Shown: in pieces, positions 1 to 64,000 of the stretch | Numbering within the stretch: position 1 is the first letter of the stretch | Layout: each line of letters starts with the position of its first letter | From: Bacteroidales bacterium | GTDB lineage: Bacteria; Bacteroidota; Bacteroidia; Bacteroidales; FEN-979 | DNA length: 64,000 nucleotides | Direction of reading: 5' to 3' | Assembly (NCBI GenBank): GCA_014860625.1 | Contig: JACZJJ010000022.1 | Location: 11,887 to 75,886, forward strand | Notes under the pieces: model-generated | Told to the model about the DNA's origin: nothing | The model's database searches: none | What the model saw: only the letters and a program-made list of their open reading frames with translations | Translations under genes and position numbers: made by a program

Positions 1-16
1 AATTCGTAATTCGTAA
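1..16 (+). repeat. Heptamer array (AATTCGT)x2+, cut by the window edge
   Basis: AATTCGT AATTCGT AA; exact reverse complement of 1246-1261. Confidence 0.7.
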
Positions 17-27
17 ATCCCTTCATC

Positions 28-1245
28 GTGTTTCCAATAGAAAAAATCAGAGCTGATTTCCCCATCCTGCAGACAAAGGTCTACAACAAACCTCTTGTCT
101 ATTTCGACAACGCAGCAACCACACAGAAGCCAAAACAGGTGATTCAGGCGATTTCCACTTATTACGAGAAAGAGAATTGCAACATCCACCGCGGAGTTCA
201 TTTCCTGAGTGTCAAAGCTACGGAAGCATACGAGGAGGCGCGTTGTGCGATACGGGATTTTATAGGAGCGAAACATGCACATGAAATCATCTTTACACGC
301 GGAACGACCGAAGCCATTAATCTTGTGGCTTATTCTTTCGGTAAAAAATATATCAGCGCGGGAGATGAAGTGATTACATCGGTGATGGAACACCACTCAA
401 ATTTTGTTCCCTGGCAGCAGATGTGCCTTGAGCAGAAAGCCACCCTGAAATTCATTCCCTTGCTGGAGGATGGCTCTCTGGATATTCCCGCATTCCGGAA
501 CCTGATCAGCGAAAAAACCCGCCTCGTGGCAATTACCCATATCTCCAACGTGCTCGGAACGATCAATCCGATAGAGAAGATCATTGCCATAGCACACGAG
601 AAAGATATTCCGGTGTTGGTAGACGGGGCGCAGTCTGTGGCGCATACGACGGTGGATGTTCAGTCTCTGGATGCTGATTTTTATTGTTTCAGCGGCCACA
701 AGATGTATGCTCCGATGGGTATTGGCGTCCTCTATGGAAAAGAGCACTGGCTTGAAGAGATGCCTCCATACCAGATGGGTGGAGAGATGATCAAAGAGGT
801 CTTTTTTACACACACCACATTCAACGAACTTCCTTTTAAGTTTGAAGCCGGTACACCCAATGTGGAAGGAGTCCTGGGCTTGCATACAGCAATCCGGTAT
901 ATGCTGGATACGGGAATGGACCGGATTGAAGGTTACGAGCAGGAGCTTCTCGATTATGCCACCCAACGGCTTCTTGGAATTGAAGGCCTTAAGATTTATG
1001 GTACCGCAAAACACAAAGCCAGCCTGATCTCCTTTCTGATGCACGGCATCCATCCCTATGATGCCGGAATGATCATTGATAAACTGGGGGTTGCTGTTCG
1101 TACCGGGCACCATTGCGCCATGCCACTGATGGAGTACCTGCATATTCCCGGCACCATCAGGGCCTCGTTTGCTTTTTACAACACAAAAGAGGAGATCGAC
1201 CGGCTGGTTGAAGCAGTTGTGACAGCAAAGGAGATGCTACTTTAA
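28..1245 (+). CDS. sufS: Cysteine desulfurase SufS
   Basis: FDNAATTQKP, NIHRG, PLP lysine motif SGHKM, RTGHHCAMP; GTG start. Confidence 0.96.
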   Translation: MFPIEKIRADFPILQTKVYNKPLVYFDNAATTQKPKQVIQAISTYYEKENCNIHRGVHFLSVKATEAYEEARCAIRDFIGAKHAHEIIFTRGTTEAINLVAYSFGKKYISAGDEVITSVMEHHSNFVPWQQMCLEQKATLKFIPLLEDGSLDIPAFRNLISEKTRLVAITHISNVLGTINPIEKIIAIAHEKDIPVLVDGAQSVAHTTVDVQSLDADFYCFSGHKMYAPMGIGVLYGKEHWLEEMPPYQMGGEMIKEVFFTHTTFNELPFKFEAGTPNVEGVLGLHTAIRYMLDTGMDRIEGYEQELLDYATQRLLGIEGLKIYGTAKHKASLISFLMHGIHPYDAGMIIDKLGVAVRTGHHCAMPLMEYLHIPGTIRASFAFYNTKEEIDRLVEAVVTAKEMLL

Positions 1246-1294
1246 TTACGAATTACGAATTACGAAGAGCGAAATGCGAATAGCGAATAGCGAA
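1244..1294 (+). repeat. Heptamer array AAnnnCG x7
   Basis: AATTACG x3, AAGAGCG, AAATGCG, AATAGCG x2 in register; contains the ATG of the next gene. Confidence 0.9.
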
Positions 1295-2776
1295 CGGCAA
1301 AACCCCACCCTTCTCCAGGTCAATACCCGCGTTTATCTCACTGAACTCTCCCGGAAGTTGAAACGTGGTACAACCCTCGACGACATCCCCGAAGAGGAGA
1401 TCGAAAGCTGGGCGAACGCTGGTTTTGACTGGATTTACATGCTCAGCGTCTGGCAAACCGGCGAAGCAGGAAGGCAGATCTCCCGGTCCAATTCGCAGTG
1501 GAGAAGAGAATTTGAGGAGACACTCGATGACCTGGAAGAATCCGATATCATCGGCTCTGGGTTTGCCATCAAAGAATATAAAGTAACCAGTTCGATCGGA
1601 GGAGCAGAGGCCCTGAAACGGCTGAGGGAGCGGATTGCCGGATATGGCATGAAGCTGATGCTCGATTTTGTGCCCAACCATATGGCCCCCGATCATCCCT
1701 GGGTAGAGAATCACCCCGATTTTTTCATCAGGGGAACAGAAGCAGACATCCTCCGGGCTCCTGAAAATTTCACATGGATAGACCGAACCCAGGGAGAGCT
1801 GGTTCTTGCCTATGGCCGCGACCCATATTTCTCGGGCTGGCCCGACACCATTCAACTGAATTATGGCAATGTTCACCTACAGGAAGCTATGAAGGAAGAG
1901 CTCCTGCAGATTGCTTCTCAATGTGATGGGGTGCGATGCGACATGGCAATGCTGCTACTCCCGGAAATCTTCGCAAACACCTGGAGTATCCGGGTCGAAC
2001 CTTTCTGGCCGGATGCCATTCAACGGGTAAAAAAGGATGTTCCCGGATTTGTGATGATGGGGGAGGTTTACTGGGACCTTGAGTGGGAGATGCAACAACA
2101 GGGCTTCGATTTTACCTACGACAAACGGCTATACGATCGCTTGCGTACCCTGGAAGCCACTCCGGTGCGCGACCACCTGAGGGCCGATATCAATTACCAG
2201 GAGAGACTGGCCCGTTTCCTGGAGAATCATGATGAACAGCGGGTTGCACGGGCATTTCCATGGGATCAGCATCAGGCGGCAGCCATTCTTACTTTCCTTA
2301 CACCCGGACTGAAGTTTTTCCACAAGGGTGAGTGTCAGGGAAAGAAGGTAAAAATCTCTCCCCATCTGGGACGTGGTCCAGTTGAAAAACCAAACAAAAT
2401 CACGGAAGCCTTCTATGCACAACTTCTCACACTCATAAAAAGACCTCTTTTTCATGAAGGGGAGTGGCAGCTTCTGGAATCTGTACCTGCCTGGGATGAA
2501 AATCAAACCAACCAGGATTTCATTGCTTTCTCATGGGAATATCAGGAATCGAAGGTCGTGGCAATCGTCAATTACGCCTCCTGCCAGGGGCAAGCATTGA
2601 TTCGACTTCCATTCGCAGAAATAGTGGGAGAGAGAGTCTCACTGAAGGAGATTTTCGTGGATAACATCTATCACCGTGACGGTACCGAACTGAATCAGCG
2701 CGGACTCTATGTTGACCTTCCCGGCTGGGGATACCACCTTTTTGAATTACGAATGACGAACCGGAGCGAAGCGTAG
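1274..2776 (+). CDS. GH13 alpha-amylase family glycosidase, no signal peptide
   Basis: DFVPNH, DGVRCDMAM, GEVYW, FLENHDE conserved regions. Confidence 0.88.
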   Translation: MRIANSERQNPTLLQVNTRVYLTELSRKLKRGTTLDDIPEEEIESWANAGFDWIYMLSVWQTGEAGRQISRSNSQWRREFEETLDDLEESDIIGSGFAIKEYKVTSSIGGAEALKRLRERIAGYGMKLMLDFVPNHMAPDHPWVENHPDFFIRGTEADILRAPENFTWIDRTQGELVLAYGRDPYFSGWPDTIQLNYGNVHLQEAMKEELLQIASQCDGVRCDMAMLLLPEIFANTWSIRVEPFWPDAIQRVKKDVPGFVMMGEVYWDLEWEMQQQGFDFTYDKRLYDRLRTLEATPVRDHLRADINYQERLARFLENHDEQRVARAFPWDQHQAAAILTFLTPGLKFFHKGECQGKKVKISPHLGRGPVEKPNKITEAFYAQLLTLIKRPLFHEGEWQLLESVPAWDENQTNQDFIAFSWEYQESKVVAIVNYASCQGQALIRLPFAEIVGERVSLKEIFVDNIYHRDGTELNQRGLYVDLPGWGYHLFELRMTNRSEA

Positions 2777-2836
2777 CTCGGCGAAGCCAATGAGGATTGA
2801 CGAATTTATATCCCTTATCCCGTATCGCGTATCATA
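2744..2836 (+). repeat. Heptamer arrays (GAATGAC-type, TATCCCG-type) with a nested 28-bp hairpin element
   Basis: GAATTAC GAATGAC GAA[CCGGAGCGAAGCGTAGCTCGGCGAAGCC]AATGAG GATTGAC; then TATCCCT TATCCCG TATCGCG TATCATA. Confidence 0.8.
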
Positions 2837-2848
2837 TTACAGAAGTTG

Positions 2849-2856
2849 TATATTTG
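2849..2856 (+). promoter_or_regulatory. Bacteroidota -7 promoter element for sufE
   Basis: TATATTTG matches TAnnTTTG, 21 nt before the ATG. Confidence 0.6.
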
Positions 2857-2877
2857 CAATCCAAAGTACTTTAACGT

Positions 2878-3309
2878 ATGACTATCTCTGAAATTGAAGC
2901 CGAAATTGTCAGTGAATTCTCCCTCTTCGAAGATTGGATGGATAAATACAATTACCTGATTGAGCTTGGGAAATCACTTCCGGTGATCGATCCGAAATAC
3001 AAAACGGAGCAGTACATCATCTCAGGTTGCCAGTCTCAGGTATGGCTTCATGCAGAGTACAGGGAGGGGAAGGTGGTTTATACGGCTGACAGTGATGCGA
3101 TTATCACGAAAGGAATCGTCAGTCTGCTCATCCGGGTGCTGGCGAATCAATCGCCGAAGGATATTGTGGAGGCCAACCTCGATTTCATCGATACGATAGG
3201 CCTTAGAGAACACCTCTCACCAACCCGCTCCAACGGCCTGAATTCTATGATCAAACAGATGAAACTCTATGCTGTGGTATTCCAGCAGAAGTATGGTGAA
3301 AGGTCATGA
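2878..3309 (+). CDS. sufE: SufE sulfur acceptor
   Basis: GCQSQVW, ADSDAIITKG, LSPTRSNGL. Confidence 0.95.
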   Translation: MTISEIEAEIVSEFSLFEDWMDKYNYLIELGKSLPVIDPKYKTEQYIISGCQSQVWLHAEYREGKVVYTADSDAIITKGIVSLLIRVLANQSPKDIVEANLDFIDTIGLREHLSPTRSNGLNSMIKQMKLYAVVFQQKYGERS

Positions 3310-3393
3310 AGTCATGAGGTCATGAGGTCATGACTGCCCACTGCCAACTGCCGACTGCCGACTGCCCACTGGCTACTGCCCACTGCCCACTGG
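3301..3393 (+). repeat. Octamer array (AGGTCATG)x4 abutting heptamer array (ACTGCCn)x8
   Basis: Fills the whole junction between convergent sufE and pspC and overlaps both stop codons. Confidence 0.92.
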
Positions 3394-3582
3394 TTCTTCC
3401 GGTACAATGATCCAGGCGATAATGTAGGCCAGGAGGCCCATCCCGCCGGCAAAAAACATCACAGCCCATAAAACCCTGAGCAAGACCGGGTCTACTTTGA
3501 AATATTCTCCTAGTCCGCCGCAGACACCACCGATGATCCTGTCTCTTCTTGAACGGTATAATCTTCTTAACTCTTCAGTCAT
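3373..3582 (-). CDS. pspC: PspC domain protein (69 aa)
   Basis: RRLYRSRRDRIIGGVCGGLGEYF...AYIIAWIIVPEE; start reassigned to MTEE. Confidence 0.88.
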   Translation of the reverse strand: MTEELRRLYRSRRDRIIGGVCGGLGEYFKVDPVLLRVLWAVMFFAGGMGLLAYIIAWIIVPEEPVGSGQ

Positions 3583-3703
3583 GATTTTTGGATTTTGGTT
3601 TAGGCCACGAAGATAAAAGGAATCGTTACACAGACCAAAACACCTATCGGTGAGTTGCCGGAAATCGTCGTTAAAATGGTTAATTTTGCAGAAAGAAGTA
3701 TTT

Positions 3704-4021
3704 ATGGACCTGAAAAAATTCGAAATGGAAAACAAGGTCATCTCTGCCCTGCGGCAGGTATATGACCCTGAAATACCGGTTAACATTTACGACCTTGGTT
3801 TGATCTACGATCTGCGACTGGACGATTCCTTCAATGTGAATGTCCTGATGACGCTCACTACACCCAATTGTCCTGTTGCCGAAGATATGCCCGGAATGGT
3901 GAAAAGTGAAATCAAGTTGATTGAAGGCATCGGGGAGGTGAATGTTGAGTTAACGTTCGAACCTCCCTGGGACATGGAAAAACTGACCGACGAAGCCAAG
4001 CTCGAACTCGGCATGCTCTAA
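3704..4021 (+). CDS. sufT: SufT/DUF59 Fe-S assembly protein
   Basis: VYDPEIPVNIYDLGLIY, MTLTTPNCPVA, FEPPW; TAATTTTG at 3681-3688 supports start 3704. Confidence 0.88.
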   Translation: MDLKKFEMENKVISALRQVYDPEIPVNIYDLGLIYDLRLDDSFNVNVLMTLTTPNCPVAEDMPGMVKSEIKLIEGIGEVNVELTFEPPWDMEKLTDEAKLELGML

Positions 4022-4064
4022 CCCGTCTAACTTGTCCAACTTGTCCAACTTGTCCAACTTTTCC
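4020..4064 (+). repeat. Nonamer array (AACTTGTCC)x3 plus two degenerate units
   Basis: Read directly; followed by TACCTTTG promoter element at 4066-4073. Confidence 0.88.
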
Positions 4065-4094
4065 CTACCTTTGTCTACCCAAAAACTCCAGCAC

Positions 4095-5993
4095 ATGACC
4101 CCTGCAATCGGGCCGTTATTAGCGAACATTGATTCACCCGACGATCTCAAGAAATTGTCTGTTGAGGAATTGCCGAAACTGTGTGATGAGATCCGTTCGC
4201 TGATCATTGATGTGATCTCTGTCAACCAGGGTCATCTGGGAGCTAGCCTGGGAACGGTCGACTTGGCTGTTGCGCTTCATTACGTGTTTGACACGCCCAA
4301 AGACAAAGTGATTTGGGATGTAGGGCATCAGGCTTATGCGCATAAAATTCTGACAGGAAGGAAAGGGATGTTCCACACCATCCGGATGTATAAGGGGATC
4401 AGTGGATTCCCCAAGATGTCGGAGAGTGAATACGATGCATTTGGGGTCGGTCACTCCTCCACTTCTATCTCCGCTGCCCTGGGGATGGGCGTTGCAGCCA
4501 GACTCAGCGGAAACGGTAATCATCATCAGGTAGCTGTGATTGGTGATGGAGCTATGACTGGCGGGATGGCCATGGAGGCTCTCAACAATGCAGGAGTATC
4601 CAATGCCAACCTGCTGGTTATTCTCAATGACAACCAGATCGCCATTGATAAAAATGTTGGTGCCATCAAAGATTACCTGGCTGATATTGTAACCAGCCGG
4701 ACATATAACAAAATCCGTGATAAGATATGGTTCCTCATGGGAGGTGGTACCAAATACGGGAAGAATTCCAGGGCCGTGGTCAAGCAGCTCGGAAATGCGG
4801 TAAAATCCTCCATTTTAACCCGCAGCAACCTGTTTGAAGCTTTTAACTTTCGCTATTTCGGTCCGGTTGATGGGAACGATGTCATCCGTCTCGTGAAGTT
4901 GTTGTCGGACCTCAAGGTTATTCATGGTCCGAAGTTGTTGCACTTGAGTACAGTCAAAGGAAAGGGGTTTGAGAAAGCCGAAAAGGACCAAACGAGTTAT
5001 CATGCTCCGGGTGTCTTTGACCGGACTACCGGCGTGATCAAGGAGGATAAATGCCACGGACTGGCTCCCAAGTACCAGACTGTTTTTGGCAGGACGATCA
5101 TCGAACTGGCTGAGAAGAATCCTAAGATAGTGGGAGTCACACCAGCTATGGCTTCAGGCTGTTCGCTCAATATTATGATGAACAAGATGCCTGACCGGGC
5201 TTTTGACGTGGGCATTGCCGAGCAGCATGCGGTCACCTTCTCGGCCGGATTGGCCACCGAAGGATATATCCCGTTTTGTAATATCTACAGTACATTTATG
5301 CAACGGGCTTATGATCAGGTTATTCACGATGTGGCCCTCCAAAAGCTGCATGTTGTTTTTTGTTTAGACCGGGGCGGACTTGTTGGAGAGGATGGCCCAA
5401 CTCATCATGGGGCATTTGACCTTGCTTATTTGCGCTGCATTCCCAACCTCATCGTGGCCTCACCATTGAATGAAGAGGAGCTTCGAAACCTGATGTATAC
5501 AGCTCAACATGATGGCATGGGGCCTTTCGCCATCCGCTATCCCAGGGGAAGAGGGGTGATGCCGCAATGGAAAACCGATTTTCGGCTTCTAAAACCCGGC
5601 GTCGGTAGGATGATCAGGGAAGGAAAAGAGATAGCGATACTCTCAATCGGTCATGTCGGAAATGAAGTGGTGAAAGCATGTGAAACGCTTGAAAAGGAAG
5701 GAGTATCAATTGCCCATGGGGATATGCGTTTCCTGAAGCCACTGGATGAAGAGCTTTTGCATGCAATTTTAAAAAGCTATAAAACTATTATCACGGTTGA
5801 AGACGGAACCATTATTGGGGGTCTTGGCAGTGCGGTGATTGAATTCATCAGTGAGCACAATTATGCAGCGAAGGTCAAACGTTTGGGCATCCCCGACCGG
5901 TTTGTTGGCCAGGGATCACCGGAAGATCTTTACCGGGAATGCGGATTCGACGCACATGGTATTGAAGAGGCTGTGAAAAGTATAAAATTATGA
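4095..5993 (+). CDS. dxs: 1-deoxy-D-xylulose-5-phosphate synthase
   Basis: WDVGHQAY, GDGAMTGG, DVGIAEQHAVT, DRGGLVGEDGPTHHG; start moved downstream of repeat and promoter. Confidence 0.96.
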   Translation: MTPAIGPLLANIDSPDDLKKLSVEELPKLCDEIRSLIIDVISVNQGHLGASLGTVDLAVALHYVFDTPKDKVIWDVGHQAYAHKILTGRKGMFHTIRMYKGISGFPKMSESEYDAFGVGHSSTSISAALGMGVAARLSGNGNHHQVAVIGDGAMTGGMAMEALNNAGVSNANLLVILNDNQIAIDKNVGAIKDYLADIVTSRTYNKIRDKIWFLMGGGTKYGKNSRAVVKQLGNAVKSSILTRSNLFEAFNFRYFGPVDGNDVIRLVKLLSDLKVIHGPKLLHLSTVKGKGFEKAEKDQTSYHAPGVFDRTTGVIKEDKCHGLAPKYQTVFGRTIIELAEKNPKIVGVTPAMASGCSLNIMMNKMPDRAFDVGIAEQHAVTFSAGLATEGYIPFCNIYSTFMQRAYDQVIHDVALQKLHVVFCLDRGGLVGEDGPTHHGAFDLAYLRCIPNLIVASPLNEEELRNLMYTAQHDGMGPFAIRYPRGRGVMPQWKTDFRLLKPGVGRMIREGKEIAILSIGHVGNEVVKACETLEKEGVSIAHGDMRFLKPLDEELLHAILKSYKTIITVEDGTIIGGLGSAVIEFISEHNYAAKVKRLGIPDRFVGQGSPEDLYRECGFDAHGIEEAVKSIKL

Positions 5994-7614: not shown

Positions 7615-7650
7615 CTGAGTTGCCCTGATTGAAGTAGCAAATATACCAAA

Positions 7651-11724: not shown

Positions 11725-11757
11725 CTCGATTTGAATTTAAAAAGTATCTGTATATAT

Positions 11758-14750: not shown

Positions 14751-14778
14751 GCTTCCCGCTTCCCGCTTCCCGCTTCCC
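14751..14778 (+). repeat. Heptamer array (GCTTCCC)x4
   Basis: Four perfect units just downstream of the ABC transporter stop. Confidence 0.9.
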
Positions 14779-14789
14779 GCTACCTTCCC

Positions 14790-17099: not shown

Positions 17100-17978
17100 A
17101 TGCAATACGATCCCATAAAACGCTCCCTCGGCTCAATTTTCAACAGAACACCATGGCTGCGGATCCTCTTTTACCACTTGCTTGATCTTCTGCTGCTGCG
17201 CACATGGCATGTGAAAAAGGCACTGAGACAGTGGGGAAAGAAACAGGAAAAAGGCTCAGGGCACAGAGCTCAGGGCACAGAAACATCCAGTCATCCAGCA
17301 ACCAGCGACCAGCAACAAGCCTCCCGGATCCTCGACGCCGGCTCCGGCTTTGGACAATACAGTTACTTCCTCTCACGCATGAGCCGTAGCCTGATGGTTG
17401 ATGCCGTGGATGTGAAGGAAGAGCAGATCGCCGACTGCAACCGGTTTTTTACATCCATCGGAAGATCCAATGTGCATTTCAGCGTTGCTGACCTGACAAC
17501 ATTCTCTAAACCAGCGACCTATGAACTGATCCTCTCCGTGGATGTGATGGAACACATTCTTGAAGATGAAGCCGTGTTCAGAAATTTTCACGCATCCCTG
17601 AAACCGGGAGGCATGGTGTTGATATCGACTCCTTCCGACCAGGGCGGGTCTGACGTGCACGATCATGATGAAGAGGAGTCGTTTATTGATGAACATGTAA
17701 GGGATGGATACAACATACAAGAGATTCAGGAAAAACTGAAACGCGCCGGGTTCGGGAAGACCGAAGCGCACTTCACTTACGGAAAGCCGGGTCAAACTGG
17801 CTGGAGACTCTCGATGAAGTATCCAATCAAGATGCTCAATGCCAGTAAACTCTTTTTCATCCTATTGCCGTTCTATTACCTGCTTACATTTCCATTTGCC
17901 CTGCTGTTCAATGCGTTTGATTTGTGGGGAAAGCATAAAACCGGGACAGGCCTGATTGTCAAAGCCTGGAAAGAGTGA
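17100..17978 (+). CDS. Class I SAM-dependent methyltransferase with repeat-derived insert
   Basis: ILDAGSGFG, DVMEHI, LKPGG. Confidence 0.88.
   Translation: MQYDPIKRSLGSIFNRTPWLRILFYHLLDLLLLRTWHVKKALRQWGKKQEKGSGHRAQGTETSSHPATSDQQQASRILDAGSGFGQYSYFLSRMSRSLMVDAVDVKEEQIADCNRFFTSIGRSNVHFSVADLTTFSKPATYELILSVDVMEHILEDEAVFRNFHASLKPGGMVLISTPSDQGGSDVHDHDEEESFIDEHVRDGYNIQEIQEKLKRAGFGKTEAHFTYGKPGQTGWRLSMKYPIKMLNASKLFFILLPFYYLLTFPFALLFNAFDLWGKHKTGTGLIVKAWKE
17253..17324 (+). repeat. In-frame composite array (GGCACAG-type, AGTCATCC-type, AGCAACC-type)
   Basis: Encodes GSGHRAQGTETSSHPATSDQQQAS immediately before SAM motif I. Confidence 0.85.
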
Positions 17979-18081
17979 GATAGTGAGCTCGTGAAATGGT
18001 GAACCGGAGCGAAGCGAAGCTCGGCGGAGCCAAATGGTGAAAGTCTGGATTTTATTTCGTATTTCGTAATTCGTAATTCTT
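17975..18081 (+). repeat. Octamer array with nested 28-bp element, then heptamer array (AwTTCGT)
   Basis: GTGAGATA GTGAGCTC GTGAAATG GTGAA[CCGGAGCGAAGCGAAGCTCGGCGGAGCC]AAATG GTGAA; ATTTCGT x2 AATTCGT AATTCTT. Confidence 0.85.
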
Positions 18082-18083
18082 AA

Positions 18084-19319
18084 TTGAATATTTCCTTCTA
18101 CATAGCCCGTCGTTACTTCAAATCCAAGAAGTCGCACAATGTCATCAATATCATTTCAATGATATCGGTAGCCGGGGTTACCATCGGTACCATGGCGCTG
18201 ATCGTAGTTCTGTCGGTATTTAATGGGTTTGAACAACTGGTGGTCTCACTCTTCAACTCCTTCAATCCCGACCTTGTTATTACCCTGCGGGAAGGCAAGA
18301 ATTTTCCCGCAACAGATATCCCTCAAAACCTTCTGAGAGAGATGCCGGGAGTTCTCAACCTGACTGAGGTGCTCGAAGAGAACGCACTGATGAAATACAA
18401 GGACAAACAGGCAATCGTTACCCTGAAAGGGGTGGGGGAGGAGTACCAGCGGATGACAGGCGTGGATACCATGATGGCCGAAGGGAGGTTCCTGCTTCAG
18501 AGCGGGGATTACAACTTTACTGTACTGGGCTATGGCGTGGCCTATTACCTGAATGCCAGTTTGCAAGACTATATCAACCCCATCACCATTTTTATCCCGT
18601 CCCGCACCCGGAAGATCGGAGGATCCCTGGATCAGGCATTTAACCAGGAGATTATCTTCCCCACCGGATATTTCTCTATTCAACAGGAGTTTGATGTAAA
18701 ATATGCCCTGATGCCGATCCGCTTTGTCAGGAAACTGCTCGACTATACCAACGATGTCACTGCCATCGAGATCCAACTGGCTGACGGGGCTGACAAGCGC
18801 AGGATTCAGCAACAGATCGAAGTAGCTGTAGGTGACAGATTCAGGGTGAAAAACAGGTTTCAGCAGCAGGAACTGTTGTATAACATCATGAAATCGGAGA
18901 AATATGCCATCTTCCTGATCCTGACCTTTATCCTTCTGCTGGCAACCTTCAATGTGGTGGGCTCTCTCTCCATGCTGATCCTCGATAAAAAGAAAGACAT
19001 AGCGGTACTTCAAAGCATGGGTGCTACCATGAAGCTGATCAAACGCATCTTTTTGACAGAGGGGTTGATGATCTCAGGTATCGGCGCTCTTTCCGGAATG
19101 TTCCTGGGTGGCGTTCTCTGCTGGATCCAGCAAACATTCGGGCTCATCCGGATGGGCGGCCCCAACAGCACGTTTGTGGTGGACAGCTACCCCATTCAGA
19201 TGCAACCACTTGACTTCCTGCTTGTCTTTATTACAGTGATGCTGATCGGATACCTGGCGTCATGGTATCCTGTCTATAATATCCGGAAAATCAACACCAC
19301 GCTGGTCAAGCTCGATTGA
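18084..19319 (+). CDS. LolC/E (FtsX-like) lipoprotein-releasing ABC permease
   Basis: FYIARRYFKSKKS, VLSVFNGFE, KKKDIAVLQSMGA; TTG start. Confidence 0.88.
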   Translation: MNISFYIARRYFKSKKSHNVINIISMISVAGVTIGTMALIVVLSVFNGFEQLVVSLFNSFNPDLVITLREGKNFPATDIPQNLLREMPGVLNLTEVLEENALMKYKDKQAIVTLKGVGEEYQRMTGVDTMMAEGRFLLQSGDYNFTVLGYGVAYYLNASLQDYINPITIFIPSRTRKIGGSLDQAFNQEIIFPTGYFSIQQEFDVKYALMPIRFVRKLLDYTNDVTAIEIQLADGADKRRIQQQIEVAVGDRFRVKNRFQQQELLYNIMKSEKYAIFLILTFILLLATFNVVGSLSMLILDKKKDIAVLQSMGATMKLIKRIFLTEGLMISGIGALSGMFLGGVLCWIQQTFGLIRMGGPNSTFVVDSYPIQMQPLDFLLVFITVMLIGYLASWYPVYNIRKINTTLVKLD

Positions 19320-28060: not shown

Positions 28061-28070
28061 ATTCTTATAT

Positions 28071-28119
28071 TTTCTTAATTTCCTAATTTCGCTTTTCGCT
28101 TCTCGCTATTTCGCTATTT
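28071..28119 (-). repeat. Heptamer array (AnnAGCG) plus octamers (TTAGGAAA)
   Basis: 28087-28111 is the exact reverse complement of 44792-44816. Confidence 0.85.
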
Positions 28120-35431: not shown

Positions 35432-35488
35432 GGTAATCGGTTTGAATTTCAATAGGGGAGGTGCAAAATCGTGCAAAAGTAATTTTTT

Positions 35489-35523
35489 ATTTCTAATTTC
35501 GAATTTCCAATTTCATATTTCCA
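35489..35523 (+). repeat. Heptamer array (ATTTCnn)x5
   Basis: ATTTCTA ATTTCGA ATTTCCA ATTTCAT ATTTCCA. Confidence 0.8.
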
Positions 35524-40526: not shown

Positions 40527-41344
40527 TGAAGAAATCAATACGATATATCGCCCTGATACTACTGCTCACTGGTTGCGTAAAGCAGGCAGACTGGCCTGTT
40601 CCCGATCAATCACCGGAATTTATTGTTGTGGATGCCACCCTTACGGATGAGCAAAAGGTTCATACCGTCTCAATCAATCTCCCGGTTACAGATCTTAATG
40701 CAATCCCGGAAGCCGTGACCGGAGCAACTGTACTGATAGCCACCGCTGATTCGTTGTGGTTTCTGAACGAAGATTCCCTCCGTCCCGGGAACTACCTGAC
40801 CGACTCTTCTTTCGTTGCCACCCTTAATACAGGATATTCGCTGCAGATCCTCTGGCACGAAAAAAACTATTCGGCACAAACTTCTATGGTACCGGGTAGA
40901 GTTTTCAATCCATTGATCTATAAAAAGAATGAAGGAGATGATGCCTATCATATCGATTGGGTAGCTTCCGCATTTAGCGTGAACGACCCGGCCATGTGGG
41001 AGGTGTTTGTTGACTGGTCGGCTCTTCCCGGCTATGACACGCTGGATCCCTGCTCCTGTCAGGCCAGGTTGCTTTTTTATACCCTCCCTACCATTGATGT
41101 TAGCCAGATATTTGCTCCCATTGTTGAACAAATCTCTTTCCCTGCCGGCAGCCTCATTACCGAACGTCGCTTTTCCGTCACGCCGGATCATGCGGAGTTT
41201 CTCAGGCAACTTCTGCTGGAGACCAACTGGCAGGGAAGCATGTTCCCTTCGGCAAATGCCAATGTAATCACAAACCTGAGTTCAGGAGCTATTGGTTACT
41301 TCAGCGTGTGCGCTGTAACGGAGCTGTCGCTGGTGGTGGAGTAG
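40526..41344 (+). CDS. DUF4249-like lipoprotein
   Basis: Lipobox LTGC, IVVDATLTD, TNLSSGAIGYF; coupled to the TonB-dependent receptor. Confidence 0.7.
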   Translation: MKKSIRYIALILLLTGCVKQADWPVPDQSPEFIVVDATLTDEQKVHTVSINLPVTDLNAIPEAVTGATVLIATADSLWFLNEDSLRPGNYLTDSSFVATLNTGYSLQILWHEKNYSAQTSMVPGRVFNPLIYKKNEGDDAYHIDWVASAFSVNDPAMWEVFVDWSALPGYDTLDPCSCQARLLFYTLPTIDVSQIFAPIVEQISFPAGSLITERRFSVTPDHAEFLRQLLLETNWQGSMFPSANANVITNLSSGAIGYFSVCAVTELSLVVE

Positions 41345-41417
41345 GGCACAGGGCACAGGGCACAGGGCACAGGGCGCAGGGCACAGGGCACGTATCCGGC
41401 ATCTGGCATCCGGCATC
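41343..41417 (+). repeat. Heptamer arrays (AGGGCAC)x7 then (ATCCGGC-type)x3
   Basis: Same two-part order as the FecR insert; 41392-41412 identical to 37022-37042. Confidence 0.93.
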
Positions 41418-44760: not shown

Positions 44761-44860
44761 CGAAATTAGGAAATTAGGAAATTATTACAACAAATAGCGA
44801 GAAGCGAAAAGCGAAACATGTCATTGCGAGGAACGGAGTGACGCGGCAAAGCGAAAAGCA
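44761..44860 (+). repeat. Octamers (GGAAATTA) and heptamers (AnnAGCG) with nested GTCATTGCGAG-type element
   Basis: AATAGCG AGAAGCG AAAAGCG AAA[CATGTCATTGCGAGGAACGGAGTGACGCGGC]AAAGCG AAAAGCA. Confidence 0.8.
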
Positions 44861-45315: not shown

Positions 45316-45386
45316 ACGAAATACGAAATACGAAAAACGAAATATGGTTTGTTATTGTAAGGTCGATCTGTAAGGTCGGCCCTACA
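45316..45386. repeat. Heptamer array (ACGAAAT)x4 plus degenerate GTAG REP-like hairpin
   Basis: ACGAAAT x2, ACGAAAA, ACGAAAT; minus strand GTAGGGCCGACCT-TAC-AGATCGACCTTAC. Confidence 0.7.
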
Positions 45387-46401: not shown

Positions 46402-49203
46402 ATGATGAAGAGAAACCTGATCCTTTTCCTTGCAATTGGACTGATTACATTGCTCGGATGCAAATCGCAAAAAGACGATCTGAACATCGTCTATGAAAAG
46501 TACACACTGCCCAACGGACTCGATGTGATCCTTCACGTCGACCGTTCCGACCCCATCGTTGCCCTGGCCATCCAGTTTCACGTTGGATCCAACCGTGAAG
46601 TAGAAGGACGGACCGGCTTTGCCCATCTGTTTGAGCATATGATGTTCCAGAAATCTGAAAACGTTGGTGAAGACCAGTTCTTCAAAATCATCCAGGATGC
46701 CGGTGGTACACTGAACGGCGGAACCGGTAACGATGCTACAACCTACTATGAAGTGGTTCCGAAAAATGCACTTGAGAAAATCCTCTGGCTGGAGTCAGAC
46801 AGGATGGGATACATGATCAACACCGTCACGCAAAATGCCTTCAGCATCCAGCAAAATGTGGTGCAGAATGAGAAGAGGCAGGGTGTCGACAACCAACCTT
46901 ACGGATTCACATCCTGGGTCATCGCGACGAATCTTTATCCCAAAGGGCATCCATACAGCTGGACAGTCATTGGTGAAATGGAAGACCTGAAAAACGCTTC
47001 TGTGGAAGATGTGAAAGCGTTTCACCACCAGTGGTATGTACCAAACAATGCGACCCTTGTGCTGGCCGGAGATTTTGATGTGGATGAGGCCAAAAAGCTG
47101 ATCGAGAAGTATTTCGGTGAGATCCCCAGAGGAGGTGAGATCACCGATCCCGAACCGATGCCGGTAACTCTGGATAAAACCATCAAGGTTTATCATGAAG
47201 ATAATTTTGCCAAAGCTCCGCAGTTCCGGATGATCTGGCCGACCGTTGAAGATTACAATGCAGACGCCTATGCCCTGAGCTACCTTGGGGAACTGCTCTC
47301 TCAGGGGAAAAAAGCACCCCTGTATAAAGTATTGGAGAAAGAGAAAATGCTCTCTTCAAGTCAGTATGCATACAATAGTGCCCAGGAGATTGCCGGATCC
47401 TTCAATATTGTGGTTACTGCCAACGACGGCGTGAGCCTGAAAGAGGTTGAACAGGGAGTATGGGATGCCTTTGCCATGTTTGAAGAAGAGGGATTTACCG
47501 AAGCCGATGTTGAGCGAATCAAAGCCGGCCTGGAAACAGGTTTTTACAACGGGATCAGCAGTATCCTGGGAAAATCTTTCCAGCTTGCTTACTACAATGA
47601 ACAGAAGAATGATCCCTCATACTACAAAGTGGATTTGGAACGTACCAAGGCTGTCACCAAAGATGATATCCTCAGGGTGTACAACAAATACATCAAAGAC
47701 AAACCTTTCCTGGCAACCAGCTTTGTCCCAAAAGGCCAGCTTGAACTTGTAGCTGAGGAGTCGGTGAAGTCAGGTGTGGTAGAAGAGAGCATTGCCGAAG
47801 CTACCCAGGTTGAGATTGCCAATACGGAAGAAGAGGAGGTTGTGAAAACAACTACCATTCTGGATCGTTCGGTGATGCCTGCCGATGGACCGGATCCGCT
47901 GCTCAACCTGCCTGCAGTTTGGAATGGCTCTCTGGCAAATGAGATCAAGGTTTATGGTATCGAACAGCATGAGCTTCCTTTGATACAATTCAGCGTTACG
48001 TTAAAAGGGGGCCATTACCTTGACCAGCTCGACAAAGCCGGAGTAGCTTATCTGGTTTCAGAGCTGATGATGGAAGGGACGAAAAACAAAACACCGCAGG
48101 AACTGGAAGAGGCGATTGAAATGCTCGGAGCGAACATTTCTATGAGGACTTCAAATAATTCAATTTCAATCAGTGCCAATGCACTTGTGCGGAATTACGA
48201 CTCGGTGTTGGCTCTGGTTCAGGAGATCCTGCTGGAACCCCGTTGGGATGAGGAGGAGTTTGCCATGGCAAAGACCAGGCTGTTGAACTCCCTGAAACGC
48301 CAGAAAGCCAGTCCGAATGCGCTGGTCAGCGAAGGTTTTAATAAACTTATTTACGGGAAAGATCATATTTTTTCTGTTAGCAGCCAGGGAACGCTGGAAA
48401 CCATCGAAACAATCACGATCGACGATCTGAAAGCGTATTATGATGCAAACTTCTCTCCGTCTGTAACTTCCTTCCTGATTGCCGGCGACATTGCAAAGGA
48501 GAGGGTGATGAAATCTCTTGAGGATCTTTCTGCACAGTGGCTGACAAAAGAGGTCTCGTTTCCAACTTATACGTTACCTGAGGAGCTACCTGCATCGAAG
48601 ATCTATTTTGTAGATGTTCCGGGAGCGAAACAATCGGTGATTAACATTGGTTACCTGGCAATGGCACGCACGAACCCCGATTTCTATCCTGCAACGGTCA
48701 TGAACTACAAATTGGGAGGATCTTTTGCCGGAAATGTCAACATGGTGTTGAGGGAGGAGAAGGGGTATACCTATGGTGCCCGTACCGGCTTCCGTGGCGA
48801 TGAGATTCCTGGTCCGTTTTCAGCATCTGCCAGTGTAAGGTCATCGGCTACTGAAGAGTCGGTCAAGATTTTCAAAGAATTGATGGAGCAATACCGAAAC
48901 GGCATCACCGAGGAGGAGTTGTTGTTTACGAAGAATGCACTGATCAAGAGCAATGCAAGGGAGTTTGAGACCCTGCGCGCCCTGATCAGCATGCTCAGCA
49001 ACATTGCCGAATACAATCTTCCATTCGATTACGTGAAGAACGAAGAGGCTACTGTAAAAGGGATGACCCTCGAGCAGCACAAAGCGCTAGCCGATAAATA
49101 CATTGTTCCCGGAAGGATGTACTACGTTATTGGAGGCGATGCCAAAACACAACTGAAACCACTGGAGAAGATTGGGTTTGGGAAGGTAGAGCTGGTGAAG
49201 TAG
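46402..49203 (+). CDS. M16 (pitrilysin-like) zinc protease, lipoprotein
   Basis: Lipobox LLGC, GFAHLFEHMMF (HxxEH), LREEKGYTYG. Confidence 0.92.
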   Translation: MMKRNLILFLAIGLITLLGCKSQKDDLNIVYEKYTLPNGLDVILHVDRSDPIVALAIQFHVGSNREVEGRTGFAHLFEHMMFQKSENVGEDQFFKIIQDAGGTLNGGTGNDATTYYEVVPKNALEKILWLESDRMGYMINTVTQNAFSIQQNVVQNEKRQGVDNQPYGFTSWVIATNLYPKGHPYSWTVIGEMEDLKNASVEDVKAFHHQWYVPNNATLVLAGDFDVDEAKKLIEKYFGEIPRGGEITDPEPMPVTLDKTIKVYHEDNFAKAPQFRMIWPTVEDYNADAYALSYLGELLSQGKKAPLYKVLEKEKMLSSSQYAYNSAQEIAGSFNIVVTANDGVSLKEVEQGVWDAFAMFEEEGFTEADVERIKAGLETGFYNGISSILGKSFQLAYYNEQKNDPSYYKVDLERTKAVTKDDILRVYNKYIKDKPFLATSFVPKGQLELVAEESVKSGVVEESIAEATQVEIANTEEEEVVKTTTILDRSVMPADGPDPLLNLPAVWNGSLANEIKVYGIEQHELPLIQFSVTLKGGHYLDQLDKAGVAYLVSELMMEGTKNKTPQELEEAIEMLGANISMRTSNNSISISANALVRNYDSVLALVQEILLEPRWDEEEFAMAKTRLLNSLKRQKASPNALVSEGFNKLIYGKDHIFSVSSQGTLETIETITIDDLKAYYDANFSPSVTSFLIAGDIAKERVMKSLEDLSAQWLTKEVSFPTYTLPEELPASKIYFVDVPGAKQSVINIGYLAMARTNPDFYPATVMNYKLGGSFAGNVNMVLREEKGYTYGARTGFRGDEIPGPFSASASVRSSATEESVKIFKELMEQYRNGITEEELLFTKNALIKSNAREFETLRALISMLSNIAEYNLPFDYVKNEEATVKGMTLEQHKALADKYIVPGRMYYVIGGDAKTQLKPLEKIGFGKVELVK

Positions 49204-53510: not shown

Positions 53511-53580
53511 AAAACATAGAATGTATGTTAGTGTCAAATATACAAAATAATTAGGGAAAAATTATAAATTGTTGAAAAAA

Positions 53581-55473: not shown

Positions 55474-55503
55474 TGGTCATTAATGTTTATTTACCCCAAA
55501 CTC

Positions 55504-55593: not shown

Positions 55594-56719
55594 ATATCTC
55601 CACCACCGCTCCTTCTTTCGCTTTCGCATACCCCCGAAACATTGCATTGGTGTTGAAGGGCATCGCGATATTTCCATCTTTGTCAACAGCGATCAGGCCG
55701 CCACCGCCTCCCTGCGATTTCAGTTTATCCCGGATGAGGTAGTTTGTCGCCTCTTCCAGAGACCAATCCCGGTACTCCATCAGTGCGGAGACATCATAGG
55801 CGATCACATTCCGCATGAAATATTCGCCTGTACCGGTGCAGGAAACCGCACAGGTAGCATTATTTGCGTAGGTTCCTGCCCCAATGATCGGGGTGTCGCC
55901 AATCCTCCCTTTCATTTTCATCATCAGTCCCCCGGTAGAGGTTGCCGCTGCCAGGTTGCCCATGTTATCCAGGGCAACAGCACCCACAGTCCCTTTGGTG
56001 TTGTCATCCTTCATGCTCACGGTATCGGGCCGAGAATCCTTTTTCTCTTTGATTGTATCTGATTTGCTTCGCTGCTGCTCTTTCATCCGCTCGTATTGTT
56101 TCGTTCTGGCCGGGGTCTGAAAATAGGAACGGTCAACCATTTCGAGTCCCTGTGCCTGTGCGAAAAGATCGGCTCCTTCGCACATCAGAAGAACATGCCG
56201 TGTTTCAGTCATCACCAGCCGGGCGGCCGACACCGGATGCCGTATGGTGGTTACACCAGTTACCGCACCAGCCATCAAGGTACTCCCATCCATGATGGAG
56301 GCATCCATTTCGGCATATCCTTCATCGTTGTACACAGCGCCTTTCCCGGCATTGAAGAGGGGGCAGTCCTCCATAAACATCACCACGGCTTCCACGGCTT
56401 CCATACTGCTTCCTCCCTTTTCCAGGATGCCTGTTCCCACCGCAAGGGCTTCATTGAGTTTATCTTTGTATGCCTGTTCTTGCTCCTCCGACATCGATCC
56501 CTGGGGAGGTCCGCCGGCCCCCCCGTGGATGACCAGAACCCAGTTGCCCGGATGAAAGCCTGGTTGTCCGGTCCCGGATGCCTGATCCCGGATGCCGGAT
56601 GCCGGATCGGGGAGAGGTGTAATGGAAACATCCTGGCTGAAACCTGTTGAGCTGAAAAGTAACGGAATTAATAGCATCAGAAAGCCGCCAAATCCTGGTA
56701 TTTTACATGTCTTTTTCAT
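55586..56719 (-). CDS. Isoaspartyl peptidase / L-asparaginase (Ntn hydrolase), secreted
   Basis: VIHGGAG, FNAGKG, GTVGAVA, ATSTGG, GRIGDTP. Confidence 0.9.
   Translation of the reverse strand: MKKTCKIPGFGGFLMLLIPLLFSSTGFSQDVSITPLPDPASGIRDQASGTGQPGFHPGNWVLVIHGGAGGPPQGSMSEEQEQAYKDKLNEALAVGTGILEKGGSSMEAVEAVVMFMEDCPLFNAGKGAVYNDEGYAEMDASIMDGSTLMAGAVTGVTTIRHPVSAARLVMTETRHVLLMCEGADLFAQAQGLEMVDRSYFQTPARTKQYERMKEQQRSKSDTIKEKKDSRPDTVSMKDDNTKGTVGAVALDNMGNLAAATSTGGLMMKMKGRIGDTPIIGAGTYANNATCAVSCTGTGEYFMRNVIAYDVSALMEYRDWSLEEATNYLIRDKLKSQGGGGGLIAVDKDGNIAMPFNTNAMFRGYAKAKEGAVVEIYP
56568..56609 (-). repeat. In-frame heptamer array (GCATCCG-type)x6
   Basis: Encodes DPASGIRDQASGT between signal peptide and enzyme. 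Confidence 0.8.
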
Positions 56720-56726
56720 TTCCTAA

Positions 56727-56803
56727 TTTTCAAATTTCATATTTCATATTTCGTCCTTCGTCCTTCTTCCTTCTTCCTTCTTCCTTCTTCCTTCGTCCCT
56801 CGT
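56727..56803 (+). repeat. Heptamer array x11 changing from ATTTCAT to CCTTCTT
   Basis: TTTTCAA ATTTCAT x2 ATTTCGT CCTTCGT CCTTCTT x4 CCTTCGT CCCTCGT. Confidence 0.9.
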
Positions 56804-56805
56804 CC

Positions 56806-57588
56806 TTACCCGATCAAAGCCCTGAACAGCTCCTTAAAATCCACCATCCCTGTCACCTTCAACGCTGCCAGGATCACGGAAGCCACGATGACCCACCGGA
56901 TAAATTTACCACCTTTTTTAATAGCCATCACGCTGGCGATGTAGGCTCCGGCAATACTGCCGATTGACAGCAATATCCCGTACAGGTAATACACCTGATC
57001 GCTGAGGATAAAGATCACCAGCGAAACGGCTGCCGAGAAGAGGATCACCAGGTTTTTGACGGCATTCGCCTTTACCAGTTCGAAGCCAACACCCAGCACC
57101 AATGCCATCAGCAGGAAATAGCCCACGCCCACCTGCAGGAAGCCGGCGTAAGCTCCCACTCCGAAGAAGAGAAGTACCTGCCACCATTGAATCTTCTTCT
57201 CCAGGAAGGCCGTGTTCTCCTTCATCCATCGTTCAGGCTTTGCAAAGATGAAGACCAGCATAAAAGCCATCACGATTACCATCGCAATCTCCAGGGCTTC
57301 CGGTTTGATCCCGGTAGCGAGCCATGCTCCGGCAAGCGACCCTACGGTAGCCGGTCCGACAAGCCACCAGATCTTGCGGGTGGTGAACATCTTGTTGCGC
57401 CAGAATGTGGTCACCGACGTGCTTGTCTGGAAAAAAACACTCACCCGGTTGGTCCCGTTGGCAATGGTGGCCGGAAGCCCAAGGATCAGCAAAAGTGATA
57501 AAGAAATCACGGATCCTCCCCCGGCGAGGGTGTTGATGAAGCCAACCAGTACGCCGGCTAAAATGATGATCAGGTACTCAACAATCAT
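56806..57588 (-). CDS. TauE/SafE family exporter
   Basis: GFINTLAGGGS, ANGTNR, YAGFLQVGVG. Confidence 0.88.
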   Translation of the reverse strand: MIVEYLIIILAGVLVGFINTLAGGGSVISLSLLLILGLPATIANGTNRVSVFFQTSTSVTTFWRNKMFTTRKIWWLVGPATVGSLAGAWLATGIKPEALEIAMVIVMAFMLVFIFAKPERWMKENTAFLEKKIQWWQVLLFFGVGAYAGFLQVGVGYFLLMALVLGVGFELVKANAVKNLVILFSAAVSLVIFILSDQVYYLYGILLSIGSIAGAYIASVMAIKKGGKFIRWVIVASVILAALKVTGMVDFKELFRALIG

Positions 57589-57791
57589 AACGCTCTTAGA
57601 TGATGATTTGCAGTGCAAACAGAATAGGAAGTCAAAAATAAGAAATCAAATCTGATAACACGACGATTATTGGTTTTTGTACCTATATACAAATAAGTAA
57701 TATTTAATTAGAATAAATAAGAATAAATAGCGTACCTTTGCCAGAGTATGATTTTATCCAAACGATTTTTTATTCACCTAATATCTTTCTC

Positions 57792-60842: not shown

Positions 60843-60964
60843 TGTTATAAATAAAAGTTATCTGAGTAGTCTGTTTCACATTGGACCATACTGCTATGTC
60901 CAGGCAGGAGCCTGAAAGCAGGGGGGATCCATCAGCTCCGGTCCTTAAACCGTGACTCTGTTTT

Positions 60965-62023: not shown

Positions 62024-62048
62024 AGATAATCAGTTAAAAGCACGCATG

Positions 62049-63176: not shown

Positions 63177-63337
63177 AAAATCAGGGATTTAAGATCCAAA
63201 GATAATCGGATTATCCATCAATAATAACGGATGTGAAAAATAATTTCTGGGGTGCTTTTCCTTAAGGATTAGTCTGATTTACAAGTACATGAACTTTTAA
63301 TGTACCGTTGTTCCGGTAGAACATTGGCCATATGAGG

Positions 63338-63552
63338 TCATCCCGGCTGAATAAAAAGCAATCCGATATAAACAGTCAATAACAGAATAAAGGATAACGC
63401 CAGGGGTTACTGCAGCCGTTTTGAACCATTGAACAGACCGACCAGTGAAAGAATGACGAATAGAACACGGATCCAGCCATATCTGTATCAGGCTTAACTT
63501 CAGGAAGCAGTAAATAGCTTGACATGGATGCCATAAGTAAAATACCCACCAT
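63338..63552 (-). pseudogene. Possible degraded membrane-protein remnant
   Basis: Hydrophobic segments split by a frameshift and an in-frame stop. Confidence 0.25.
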
Positions 63553-63563
63553 TAAACTTTTTC

Positions 63564-64000
63564 TTAGTCTTTAGCCTTTCGCAGCTTACTATGCCTCACT
63601 CCAAAGGTAAAATAAATCGCCAGTCCAATCAACAGCCAGATGCCAAACCGAAACCAGTTGGTGGTGCCAAGTTGAGCCATCAGGTAAAGATTGGTCAGCA
63701 ACCCAAGAACAGGGATCAGCGACCATTGTTTCCAGATGCCAAAGGCCGTGATGATGATGGCGATAACGATGAAAAGCAGGATAGGGATTTCGTGATAGGT
63801 CAGATCCCGGATCCCGGATCCCGGATCCCGGATCAGTGAAGGATCAACATAAAAAAGTAAGATCCCGATTCCCACCCAGATCACAGGAAGAAAATAGCGT
63901 GTATTCAGATAAGGGATGTGAAACTCTTTCTTGTCGGGAGGTGCAATGCGCCCTTTGCCTCGCTCGTCGAGAACCAGCACACCGCCCGAAACCAGGACAA
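63564..64000 (-). CDS. C-terminus of an APC-family amino acid permease (partial)
   Basis: SLIPVLGLLTNLYLM, WFRFGIWLLIGLAIYFTFG..HSKL. Confidence 0.8.
   Translation of the reverse strand, partial: VLVSGGVLVLDERGKGRIAPPDKKEFHIPYLNTRYFLPVIWVGIGILLFYVDPSLIRDPGSGIRDLTYHEIPILLFIVIAIIITAFGIWKQWSLIPVLGLLTNLYLMAQLGTTNWFRFGIWLLIGLAIYFTFGVRHSKLRKAKD
63803..63834 (-). repeat. In-frame perfect heptamer array (GATCCCG)x4+
   Basis: Encodes IRDPGSGIRD in a loop between TM helices. Confidence 0.9.

Follow-up and report, generated by a model that had tools for sequence, protein, structure and literature searches.

Heptamer-dominated tandem arrays past stop codons in a Bacteroidales genome and their relation to TIGR02436 cassettes

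We analysed a 64,000-nt stretch of the genome of a Bacteroidales bacterium (GenBank assembly GCA_014860625.1, contig JACZJJ010000022.1, positions 11,887 to 75,886), hereafter the window, in which tandem arrays of diverse short units, most of them 7 nt long, lie mainly at gene junctions. The window corresponds to C70:11887-75886 of G000, as we designate the analysed assembly (3.77 Mb, 171 contigs, 96.8% complete); the other G numbers denote related genomes. The arrays belong to the known class of heptamer-dominated repeats formed by the long simple sequence repeats (LSSRs) and the short tandemly repeated repetitive (STRR) sequences, and are new for this Prolixibacteraceae-like lineage. Their periods have an abrupt lower limit at 7 nt, they crowd directly behind stop codons with the purine-rich strand in the sense direction, they recur at orthologous junctions with drifting units, and arrays of the same kind form the inverted arms of cassettes that carry TIGR02436 genes. 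On balance, we lean towards an account in which the arrays are inherited vertically, are reshaped in place by slippage and persist where they are tolerated.

Arrays were detected with Tandem Repeats Finder (TRF), at a score of at least 30 for checking positions and of at least 40 for counting periods, and were compared with 30 dinucleotide-preserving shuffles of the window and with one dinucleotide shuffle of the genome. In the window, TRF returned 53 rows at the lower score, 21 of them with period 7; at the higher score there were 16 rows with period 7, two with period 8, two with period 9 and none with periods 3–6, against shuffled means of 0.03, 0 and 0.03 for periods 7, 8 and 9. Genome-wide rows numbered 0 for period 5 (shuffle, 0), 7 for period 6 (0), 687 for period 7 (0), 225 for period 8 (1), 96 for period 9 (2) and 25 for period 10 (8), which bears out the dominance of period 7 over 5, 6 and 10, with an occasional 8 or 9, that an earlier note on this DNA had proposed. 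Perfect runs of two, three, four and five or more copies were counted 2914, 3, 0 and 0 times at period 5 (shuffle, 3062, 1, 0 and 0), 1480, 8, 1 and 0 times at period 6 (790, 0, 0 and 0) and 899, 194, 81 and 61 times at period 7 (208, 0, 0 and 0). The excess therefore sets in abruptly at 7 nt and fades beyond 9, periods 2–5 being at shuffle level. After overlapping TRF rows had been dropped, a non-redundant set of 981 arrays remained, 664 with period 7, 221 with period 8 and 96 with period 9; the median array was 35 nt long and had 4.7 copies (range 2.9–21). At 18 of the 19 window positions listed in the earlier note TRF found an array, and all of the units named there were recovered; at the remaining position, 2744, only about two AATTACG-like copies are present, interrupted by a 28-nt palindromic insert, and TRF reports no array.

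The arrays are real, yet they fragment assemblies. As a check we used Logan contigs from three runs (X1–X3) of one bioreactor study, one of which is possibly the source of the assembly. Contigs of X1 span the arrays at 1244-4064, those of X2 the arrays at 17254-18085, and those of X3 the arrays at 17254-17320 and 4025-4064, in each case with 0 differences and no indels. The notion that the arrays are assembly artefacts could draw on the 65 arrays found no more than 50 nt from an end of one of the 171 contigs of G000 and on several Logan contigs that terminate at arrays; since contigs of all three runs span array loci unchanged and orthologous arrays occur in independent genomes, we regard its probability as practically negligible.

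Placement was assessed with gene models from a crude codon-usage picker of open reading frames (ORFs), whose 2844 models take up 90% of the genome and have exact stops and unreliable starts. Despite this coverage, the midpoint was intergenic in 653 of the 981 arrays, and 421 of the 2673 junctions contained 543 arrays. When the same array block was put at random inside its own spacer, a gap of 0 or less between stop and array was expected in 19.0% of cases and a gap of up to 3 nt in 29.7%; the observed values were 37.7% and 47.8% of 477. At predicted starts there was no enrichment (gap of up to 3 nt in 18.6% of 365 versus 20.5% at random). Convergent, co-directional and divergent junctions held 117 arrays per 425, 373 per 1882 and 53 per 366, respectively, counts that fit an approximately twofold preference of arrays for 3' over 5' ends. 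The expectation that arrays begin near a stop or a start codon was thus correct for stops and failed for starts, and their assignment to gene junctions is right for most arrays, although four window loci lie in frame within genes (FecR, 36860-37042; methyltransferase, 17254-17320; asparaginase, 56568-56607; permease, 63803-63834). By the same crude ORF calls, 198 arrays are interior to ORFs, and in 62% of them the sense strand is the purine-rich one.

A purine-rich sense strand after stops, likewise noticed earlier, was confirmed in 218 of the 241 arrays that start within 10 nt past a stop, their sense composition being A 35%, G 34%, T 18% and C 12.5%. Among arrays abutting a stop, 231 were purine-rich versus 34 pyrimidine-rich; among those abutting a start, 54 versus 58. 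Array-free 40-nt stretches past stops were purine-rich in only 41% of 982 cases, and therefore the arrays do not merely amplify the local composition. In the window, the rule is obeyed by the arrays at 1244, 3301, 14751, 17974, 28086, 41343, 45316 and 56750. GGG is absent from several units that are common past stops (AAATAGCG, AATTACG and AAATACG, for example); as the polarity is also present in units without G-tracts, the formation of G-quadruplexes is not its general cause. Intrinsic terminators beside arrays were considered and rejected (15 sites versus 19.3 expected, first 20 kb).

The first 30 kb of the window are syntenic in eight genomes of the same genus. At junctions that carry an array in G000, an array of period 7–9 was found in 25 of 32 genome-by-junction comparisons, versus 8 of 28 at junctions without an array in G000, all eight at just two junctions. 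At one and the same junction the units are often related and non-identical, and the period is sometimes changed: AATTACG, AATTGCG and AAAAGCG follow sufS in different genomes, and TGTCCGCT, TGTCCGCC and GTCCAACTT precede dxs. At 5990-5993, between dxs and the next gene, the genes share 4 nt in G000 and are directly adjacent in G005, and four other genomes of the genus have spacers of 70–145 nt there, each filled by a different array. In the linker of the asparaginase, ATCCGGC is replaced by ATCCAGC or CATCCAG at the equal position in relatives, a block-wise change of the kind typical of concerted evolution. Occupancy of a junction is thus heritable and the array sequences turn over in place, and the combination of conserved occupancy with unit drift favours evolution in situ. 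As to the proposal that a dedicated process writes or copies arrays into this genome, the comparison of orthologous junctions shows vertical inheritance with drifting units.

According to the account towards which we lean, an array would be a fixed resident of a junction or of a protein linker. There, either slipped-strand mispairing of its 7–9-nt units or unequal exchange between them would alter its length and keep its copies alike, and the unit sequence would drift as a block, i.e. by concerted evolution. Arrays would persist only at sites where they do little harm, namely directly past stops, in short spacers, or in frame in disordered linkers, and past stops they would do so only with the purine-rich, C-poor strand in the transcript; this polarity might reflect either counter-selection of C-rich untranslated RNA or a G-rich non-template strand that lets arrays expand more easily. 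The arms of TIGR02436 cassettes would simply be further such arrays, carried along by the cassette, and the arrays of the window are not remnants of such cassettes. The data show the spectrum of periods, the placement, the strand polarity, the conservation of junctions with drifting units and the clean gain and loss of cassettes; slippage as the engine, the reason for the lower limit of 7 nt and the reason for the polarity are what we infer.

Several findings weigh against this account. Plain slippage does not predict the abrupt onset at 7 nt with periods 2–5 at shuffle level, nor does it predict the small repertoire of units: with rotations and reverse complements merged, the 664 period-7 arrays use 115 units, compared with a mean of 458 (minimum 426 in 200 draws) expected from random intergenic 7-mers, and the top unit, AACTGCC, accounts for 65 arrays versus at most 10 in the null. 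Of 400 other Bacteroidota genomes, 15 contain an exact three-copy string of AACTGCC, as a rule at many loci (the same pattern written backwards, as a control, in 4 genomes); most of the genomes bearing it belong to other classes, and 0 of 7 sampled genomes of the same order have it. A few units are therefore favoured, or have spread, far beyond this lineage. Furthermore, no copy-number variants were seen in the contigs of the three runs, which hide rare variants, so that ongoing slippage is not directly demonstrated; the starts of the gene models are unreliable, as stated; and array density is linked to TIGR02436 genes, both across a set of 20 relatives (Spearman coefficient 0.68 against TIGR02436 hits per Mb, the genomes being non-independent kin sampled at 19–40 kb each) and within G000, where it reaches 42 per 100 kb at 0.3–5 kb from cassettes versus 26 genome-wide (1.6-fold, P about 0.02). 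As threshold, shared repertoire and polarity are left unexplained by slippage, there is room for a more specific mechanism. Any explanation has to meet three points: no excess up to period 6 followed by a jump at 7, a small repertoire shared with distant lineages, and a purine polarity of about 90% even for units incapable of forming G-quadruplexes. The view that a dedicated process, not ordinary slippage, makes the arrays is hence sound in so far as ordinary microsatellite slippage would not give the onset at 7 or 115 units where some 458 are expected, and it lacks its agent, as no writer was found.

Copying of larger pieces was also considered. [quoted passage not shown] Neighbouring arrays combine freely, with 137 distinct pairs among 147, which also disposes of en-bloc copying of composite arrays, 137 of the 147 adjacent unit pairs being unique. 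An ATCTGGC variant common to both GGGCACA+ATCCGGC composites of the window was rejected as a sign of such copying, the variant being common genome-wide (6 loci).

A rather unlikely reading, in our judgement, is that the arrays are selected RNA elements, i.e. purine-rich, C-poor, unstructured tandem sites right past stops, which would serve as a multivalent platform for an RNA-binding protein with a footprint of about 7 nt, or as a spacer against Rho or against reinitiation, the repertoire of units reflecting binding specificity. It would accommodate the after-stop polarity (87–90%, unexplained by local composition), the conservation of junction occupancy across the genus and beyond, and a small repertoire with one unit in distant lineages; for TAACTGA repeats, MacGregor proposes S1/Csp-type binders with heptamer footprints (in the excerpts of PMC4679880). 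However, the units at one junction vary freely between species, even in period, the same units occur also in frame in proteins and in 5' spacers, and the polarity is equally strong at convergent junctions and in co-directional runs. Some orthologous junctions are array-free, with genes even overlapping, as at 5993, and a search of the window against the structured RNA families of Rfam 15 gave no match at the gathering score.

With the NCBIfam model, 15 TIGR02436 genes were found in G000 and, as had been stated before, none in the window; the nearest lies at C70:7716-8030, 3.9 kb upstream. Arrays flank 9 of the 15 on both sides, versus 4.1% of the 2844 gene models, and 13 of the 15 on at least one side, versus 28%. 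The two arms of a cassette repeat one unit in inverted orientation. The distribution of inverted same-unit pairs has its peak where the gap is 300–500 nt, with 10 such pairs versus a single direct one, and a TIGR02436 gene is enclosed by at least 8 of the 10; in all nine cases, the arm duplex is most stable with its own partner arm when compared with the arms of other cassettes. Inverted arms with at most one mismatch were found at 16 of 27 loci in relatives across 13 families of the order and at 37 of 65 within the genus, where arrays lie on both sides at 52 of 65. A link between such arrays and TIGR02436 genes, put forward in the earlier note, is thereby substantiated. No description of it was found in the literature searched on TIGR02436, PF05635 or S23p together with repeats (excerpts of PMC8700078 and PMC3936711).

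Some individual cassettes deserve mention. The one nearest to the window (C70:7576-8091, 3.8–4.3 kb upstream) has inverted arms of period 9 and one in-frame TAA in its gene, and G002 has a cassette at the matching junction. The cassette at C31:5037-5577 of G000 and those at loci L072, L076, L077 and L080 are orthologues from three genera; in one arm the unit TAGGGAT gives way to TAGGCAT or TAGCCAT, and the opposite arm has changed in an approximately corresponding manner. In G010 (L075), a TIGR02436 cassette stands beside the orthologue of the 933-aa window gene at 46402-49203, in a rearranged neighbourhood; G000 has an array-free 50-nt spacer at that place. At least one contig break of G000 (C73/C120) is accounted for by cassette arms.

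The suggestion that the window arrays are empty footprints of excised TIGR02436 cassettes was followed up by mapping the flanks of 65 cassettes of the same genus onto G000. Thirty-seven were collinear; 10 have the cassette in G000 too, and the other 27 collapse to 14 distinct junctions (one ambiguous 3.9-kb span excluded). Ten of these 14 cassette-less junctions are array-free, one with a spacer of just 4 nt, and four have single arrays of units unrelated to the arms in relatives; a share of 4/14 is close to the background of 421/2673. A search for 7-mer remnants was positive only at C32:14258-14282, where about 1.5 arm units remain and five relatives have a cassette. Besides this remnant, the suggestion could appeal to the only seven inverted same-unit pairs that lie within 100 nt of each other, and to the sufS-like gene of the window, which stands between inverted AATTCGT and AATTACG arrays. 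Against this, most arrays are single and unpaired, and inverted pairs of one unit are as frequent as direct ones over the distances typical of genes (45 versus 40 up to 3 kb apart), the cassette-sized peak excepted. The suggestion is largely refuted by these results, and we consider it very improbable. Since the empty junctions are mostly array-free, a cassette is gained or lost along with its arms and in most cases without trace, and the orphan arrays are therefore not what cassettes leave behind.

A related possibility is that a dedicated process is tied to the cassettes, whose S23p/Avd-like four-helix-bundle proteins or hairpin arms would seed arrays of fixed period. The inverted one-unit arms at 9 of 15 loci in G000, 16 of 27 in the order and 37 of 65 in the genus, the best pairing of own arms (9/9), the correlation of array density with cassette number and the local enrichment near cassettes would speak for it, as would the fact that two of three complete genomes without TIGR02436 genes are array-free in 40 kb. 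The third has, in 19 kb, a period-8 array and period-10 arrays all the same, and four genomes with 3–6 cassettes have no other arrays in 40 kb. Moreover, the units of the arms look as if they had been drawn at random from the pool of arrays in proportion to abundance (140/959 versus 188 expected); a cognate pairing of cassettes with orphan arrays was accordingly rejected, arm units being no commoner among orphans than abundance-weighted chance. A writer based on reverse transcriptase, which might partner the Avd-like protein, was rejected as well, given that the 96.8%-complete assembly has no hit to RVT_1. The correlation, finally, rests on related genomes and samples of 19–40 kb. We therefore rate a process of this kind as quite unlikely, while a common cause of arrays and cassettes is possible.

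One unlikely form of a common cause would be a single undescribed system comprising both, in which a factor with a footprint of 7–9 nt, possibly the S23p/Avd-like proteins themselves, recognises, stabilises or propagates units in nucleic acid exposed past translation stops. If true, it would jointly explain the 7-nt threshold, the small shared repertoire, the 90% polarity and the co-variation of density with cassettes. The results keep two co-travelling things separate: arrays, which persist in place, and TIGR02436 cassettes, whose cleanly made gains and losses include the arms. Some relatives, Draconibacterium and Prolixibacter-like bacteria among them, may be open to cultivation and, if so, to experiments.

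Heptamer-dominated repeats are known from cyanobacteria, Xanthomonas, Beggiatoaceae and a few Bacteroidetes (excerpts of PMC4679880 and PMC4692102). The LSSRs of Mrazek, Guo and Shah (2007), as summarised in part of PMC4679880, have units of 5–11 nt in runs longer than chance, heptanucleotides being the commonest, and a scattered phylogeny; a polymerase contact has been proposed there to explain the 7-nt unit. Our arrays resemble them in forming tandem runs beyond composition (687, 225 and 96 rows versus 0, 1 and 2 for periods 7–9), in the predominance of heptanucleotides (664/981) and in being over-represented between genes (653/981). They differ in their lineage, with about 981 arrays in 3.8 Mb, and in that step, repertoire and polarity have been quantified. 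The GGGNATC repeats of Xanthomonas and Nostoc (Rehm et al. 2015, excerpts of PMC4692102) are over-represented in non-coding DNA, and their downstream copies lie 0–50 nt from the stop or overlap it, with the G-rich strand as the coding strand. The G- and purine-rich sense strand past stops is shared by our arrays (218/241; G 34%, C 12.5%), which, in contrast, use dozens of units, many without G-tracts (AATTACG, AAATAGCG), have a median of 4.7 copies instead of a preference for four units, include periods 8 and 9, and show no bias before starts. The TAACTGA repeats of Beggiatoaceae, cyanobacteria and five Bacteroidetes (MacGregor 2015, excerpts of PMC4679880) lie mostly just upstream of starts, and other heptamer arrays are reported there from spacers of Gramella and Aequorivita. 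They, too, are intergenic direct heptamer repeats with one unit common to distant phyla, comparable to AACTGCC here; a single unit before starts is nevertheless unlike diverse units past stops, and TAACTGA is not among the top 25 units of this genome.

For TIGR02436 cassettes, the likeness consists in arms that have the array periods and unit pool of the genome and in the snug fit of cassettes between genes; the arrays of the window differ in being single, not inverted pairs around a TIGR02436 gene. The STRR sequences of filamentous and heterocystous cyanobacteria are intergenic heptamer repeats with the units STRR1–3. Three heptanucleotides have been noted in Calothrix PCC 7601 (excerpts of PMC4692102). 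The parallel with STRR sequences drawn in the earlier note is a fair analogy as regards short tandem heptamers scattered in intergenic DNA; the phylum and the top units differ. The gene content of the window is of Bacteroidota type (FecR anti-sigma factor, SusC-like TonB-dependent receptor, DUF4249, Omp28) and the close relatives found through the asparaginase gene are uncultured Prolixibacteraceae or Bacteroidales, and therefore the organism is not a cyanobacterium. The microsatellites of contingency loci, which mediate phase variation, have units of 1–6 nt that shift the frame or the spacing of promoters. Our arrays are likewise tandem repeats near or inside genes, with the differences that the units have 7–9 nt, lie past stops or in frame, and show no length variants in the contigs of the three runs (rare variants being hidden).

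Within the window, the plus strand begins with an AATTCGT array (1-16; locus L001, 1459-1492), which reaches beyond the upstream edge of the window by about 14 nt and stops 11 nt short of the sufS-like ORF (28-1245, plus strand). At 1244-1294 (plus strand), AATTACG (3.3 copies) and then CGAATAG (4.6 copies) begin within the TAA stop of that ORF, the sense strand being purine-rich. The gene is thus enclosed by inverted arrays (AATTCGT at 1-16, AATTACG at 1244-1266), possibly by chance, as this unit family is very common; G004 and G009 have an equivalent bracket with co-varying units. Further plus-strand arrays are TATCCCG (3.6 copies; 2809-2833) in the spacer between an alpha-amylase-family gene and sufE, AGGTCATG (4.1 copies) followed directly by ACTGCCC (8.6 copies; together 3301-3393) overlapping the sufE stop, and GTCCAACTT (period 9, 4.4 copies; 4025-4064) beginning 4 nt past the FeS_assembly_P stop, upstream of dxs. 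On the minus strand, GCTTCCC as read on the top strand (4.4 copies; sense GGGAAGC; 14751-14781) lies 9 nt past the stop of an ABC transporter gene. At 17254-17320 (plus strand), two copies of the period-14 unit GCTCAGGGCACAGA and 3.7 of CCAGCAA are read in frame as residues 52-74 of a methyltransferase, just before the motif that binds S-adenosylmethionine; the N-terminus of this protein is alignable in four relatives. A composite follows at 17974-18085 (plus strand), with 3.6 copies of AGTGAGAT over a stop, a 28-nt palindrome at 18003-18030, and 4.3 copies of TTCGTAA abutting the next start.

The spacer of 63 nt between two minus-strand genes is filled by TTCTTAATT and ATTTCGCT arrays (28062-28119, minus strand), AGCGAAAT coming after the stop of the DUF6029 gene in the sense direction, and TAATTTC/ATTTCAA arrays (35480-35523) occupy a divergent spacer. 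On the plus strand at 36860-37042, GGGCACA (15.6 copies) and ATCCGGC (4.7 copies) are in frame in FecR, where they encode residues 78-138, a stretch that separates the N-terminal domain from the membrane helix; at 41343-41417, also on the plus strand, seven copies of AGGGCAC and 3.4 of ATCCGGC begin within the TAG stop of the DUF4249 gene. With GGGCACA and then ATCCGGC in identical order and orientation, these two loci are direct repeats 4.3 kb apart, on either side of the C-terminal part of FecR, the gene of the TonB-dependent receptor and that of DUF4249, and could serve as a substrate for deletion or duplication. The remaining arrays are GAAATTAG (2.9 copies) with AGCGAAA (3 copies; 44762-44816) in a divergent spacer, ACGAAAT (4.1 copies; 45316-45344, plus strand) 2 nt past the stop of a DUF6249 gene, and three on the minus strand: CCGGATG as read on the top strand (4.9 copies; sense ATCCGGC; 56568-56607), in frame in the asparaginase directly after the signal peptide; TTTCATA (3.6 copies) with TTCGTCC (8.3 copies, sense GGACGAA; together 56728-56807), overlapping the TauE stop and filling the spacer; and GATCCCG (4.6 copies; 63803-63834), in frame in a loop of an amino-acid permease before the AA_permease_C domain.

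Two dispersed motifs are associated with the arrays. The 28-nt palindromic element occurs within arrays at 2761-2788 and 18003-18030, its core, GAGCGAAGCG, having 32 copies in the genome; at 18003 it interrupts an array of the ATGGTGAA type. Small dispersed repeats nested inside heptamer arrays are known from cyanobacteria, and the palindrome is similar to these. The second motif (CATTGCGAGGA...GCGAAGC-like), at 44820-44860 and in the flank of the array at C10:1768 of G000, adjoins arrays, and a stretch like it is apparently translated in the N-terminus of an asparagine amidase of a relative (L032).

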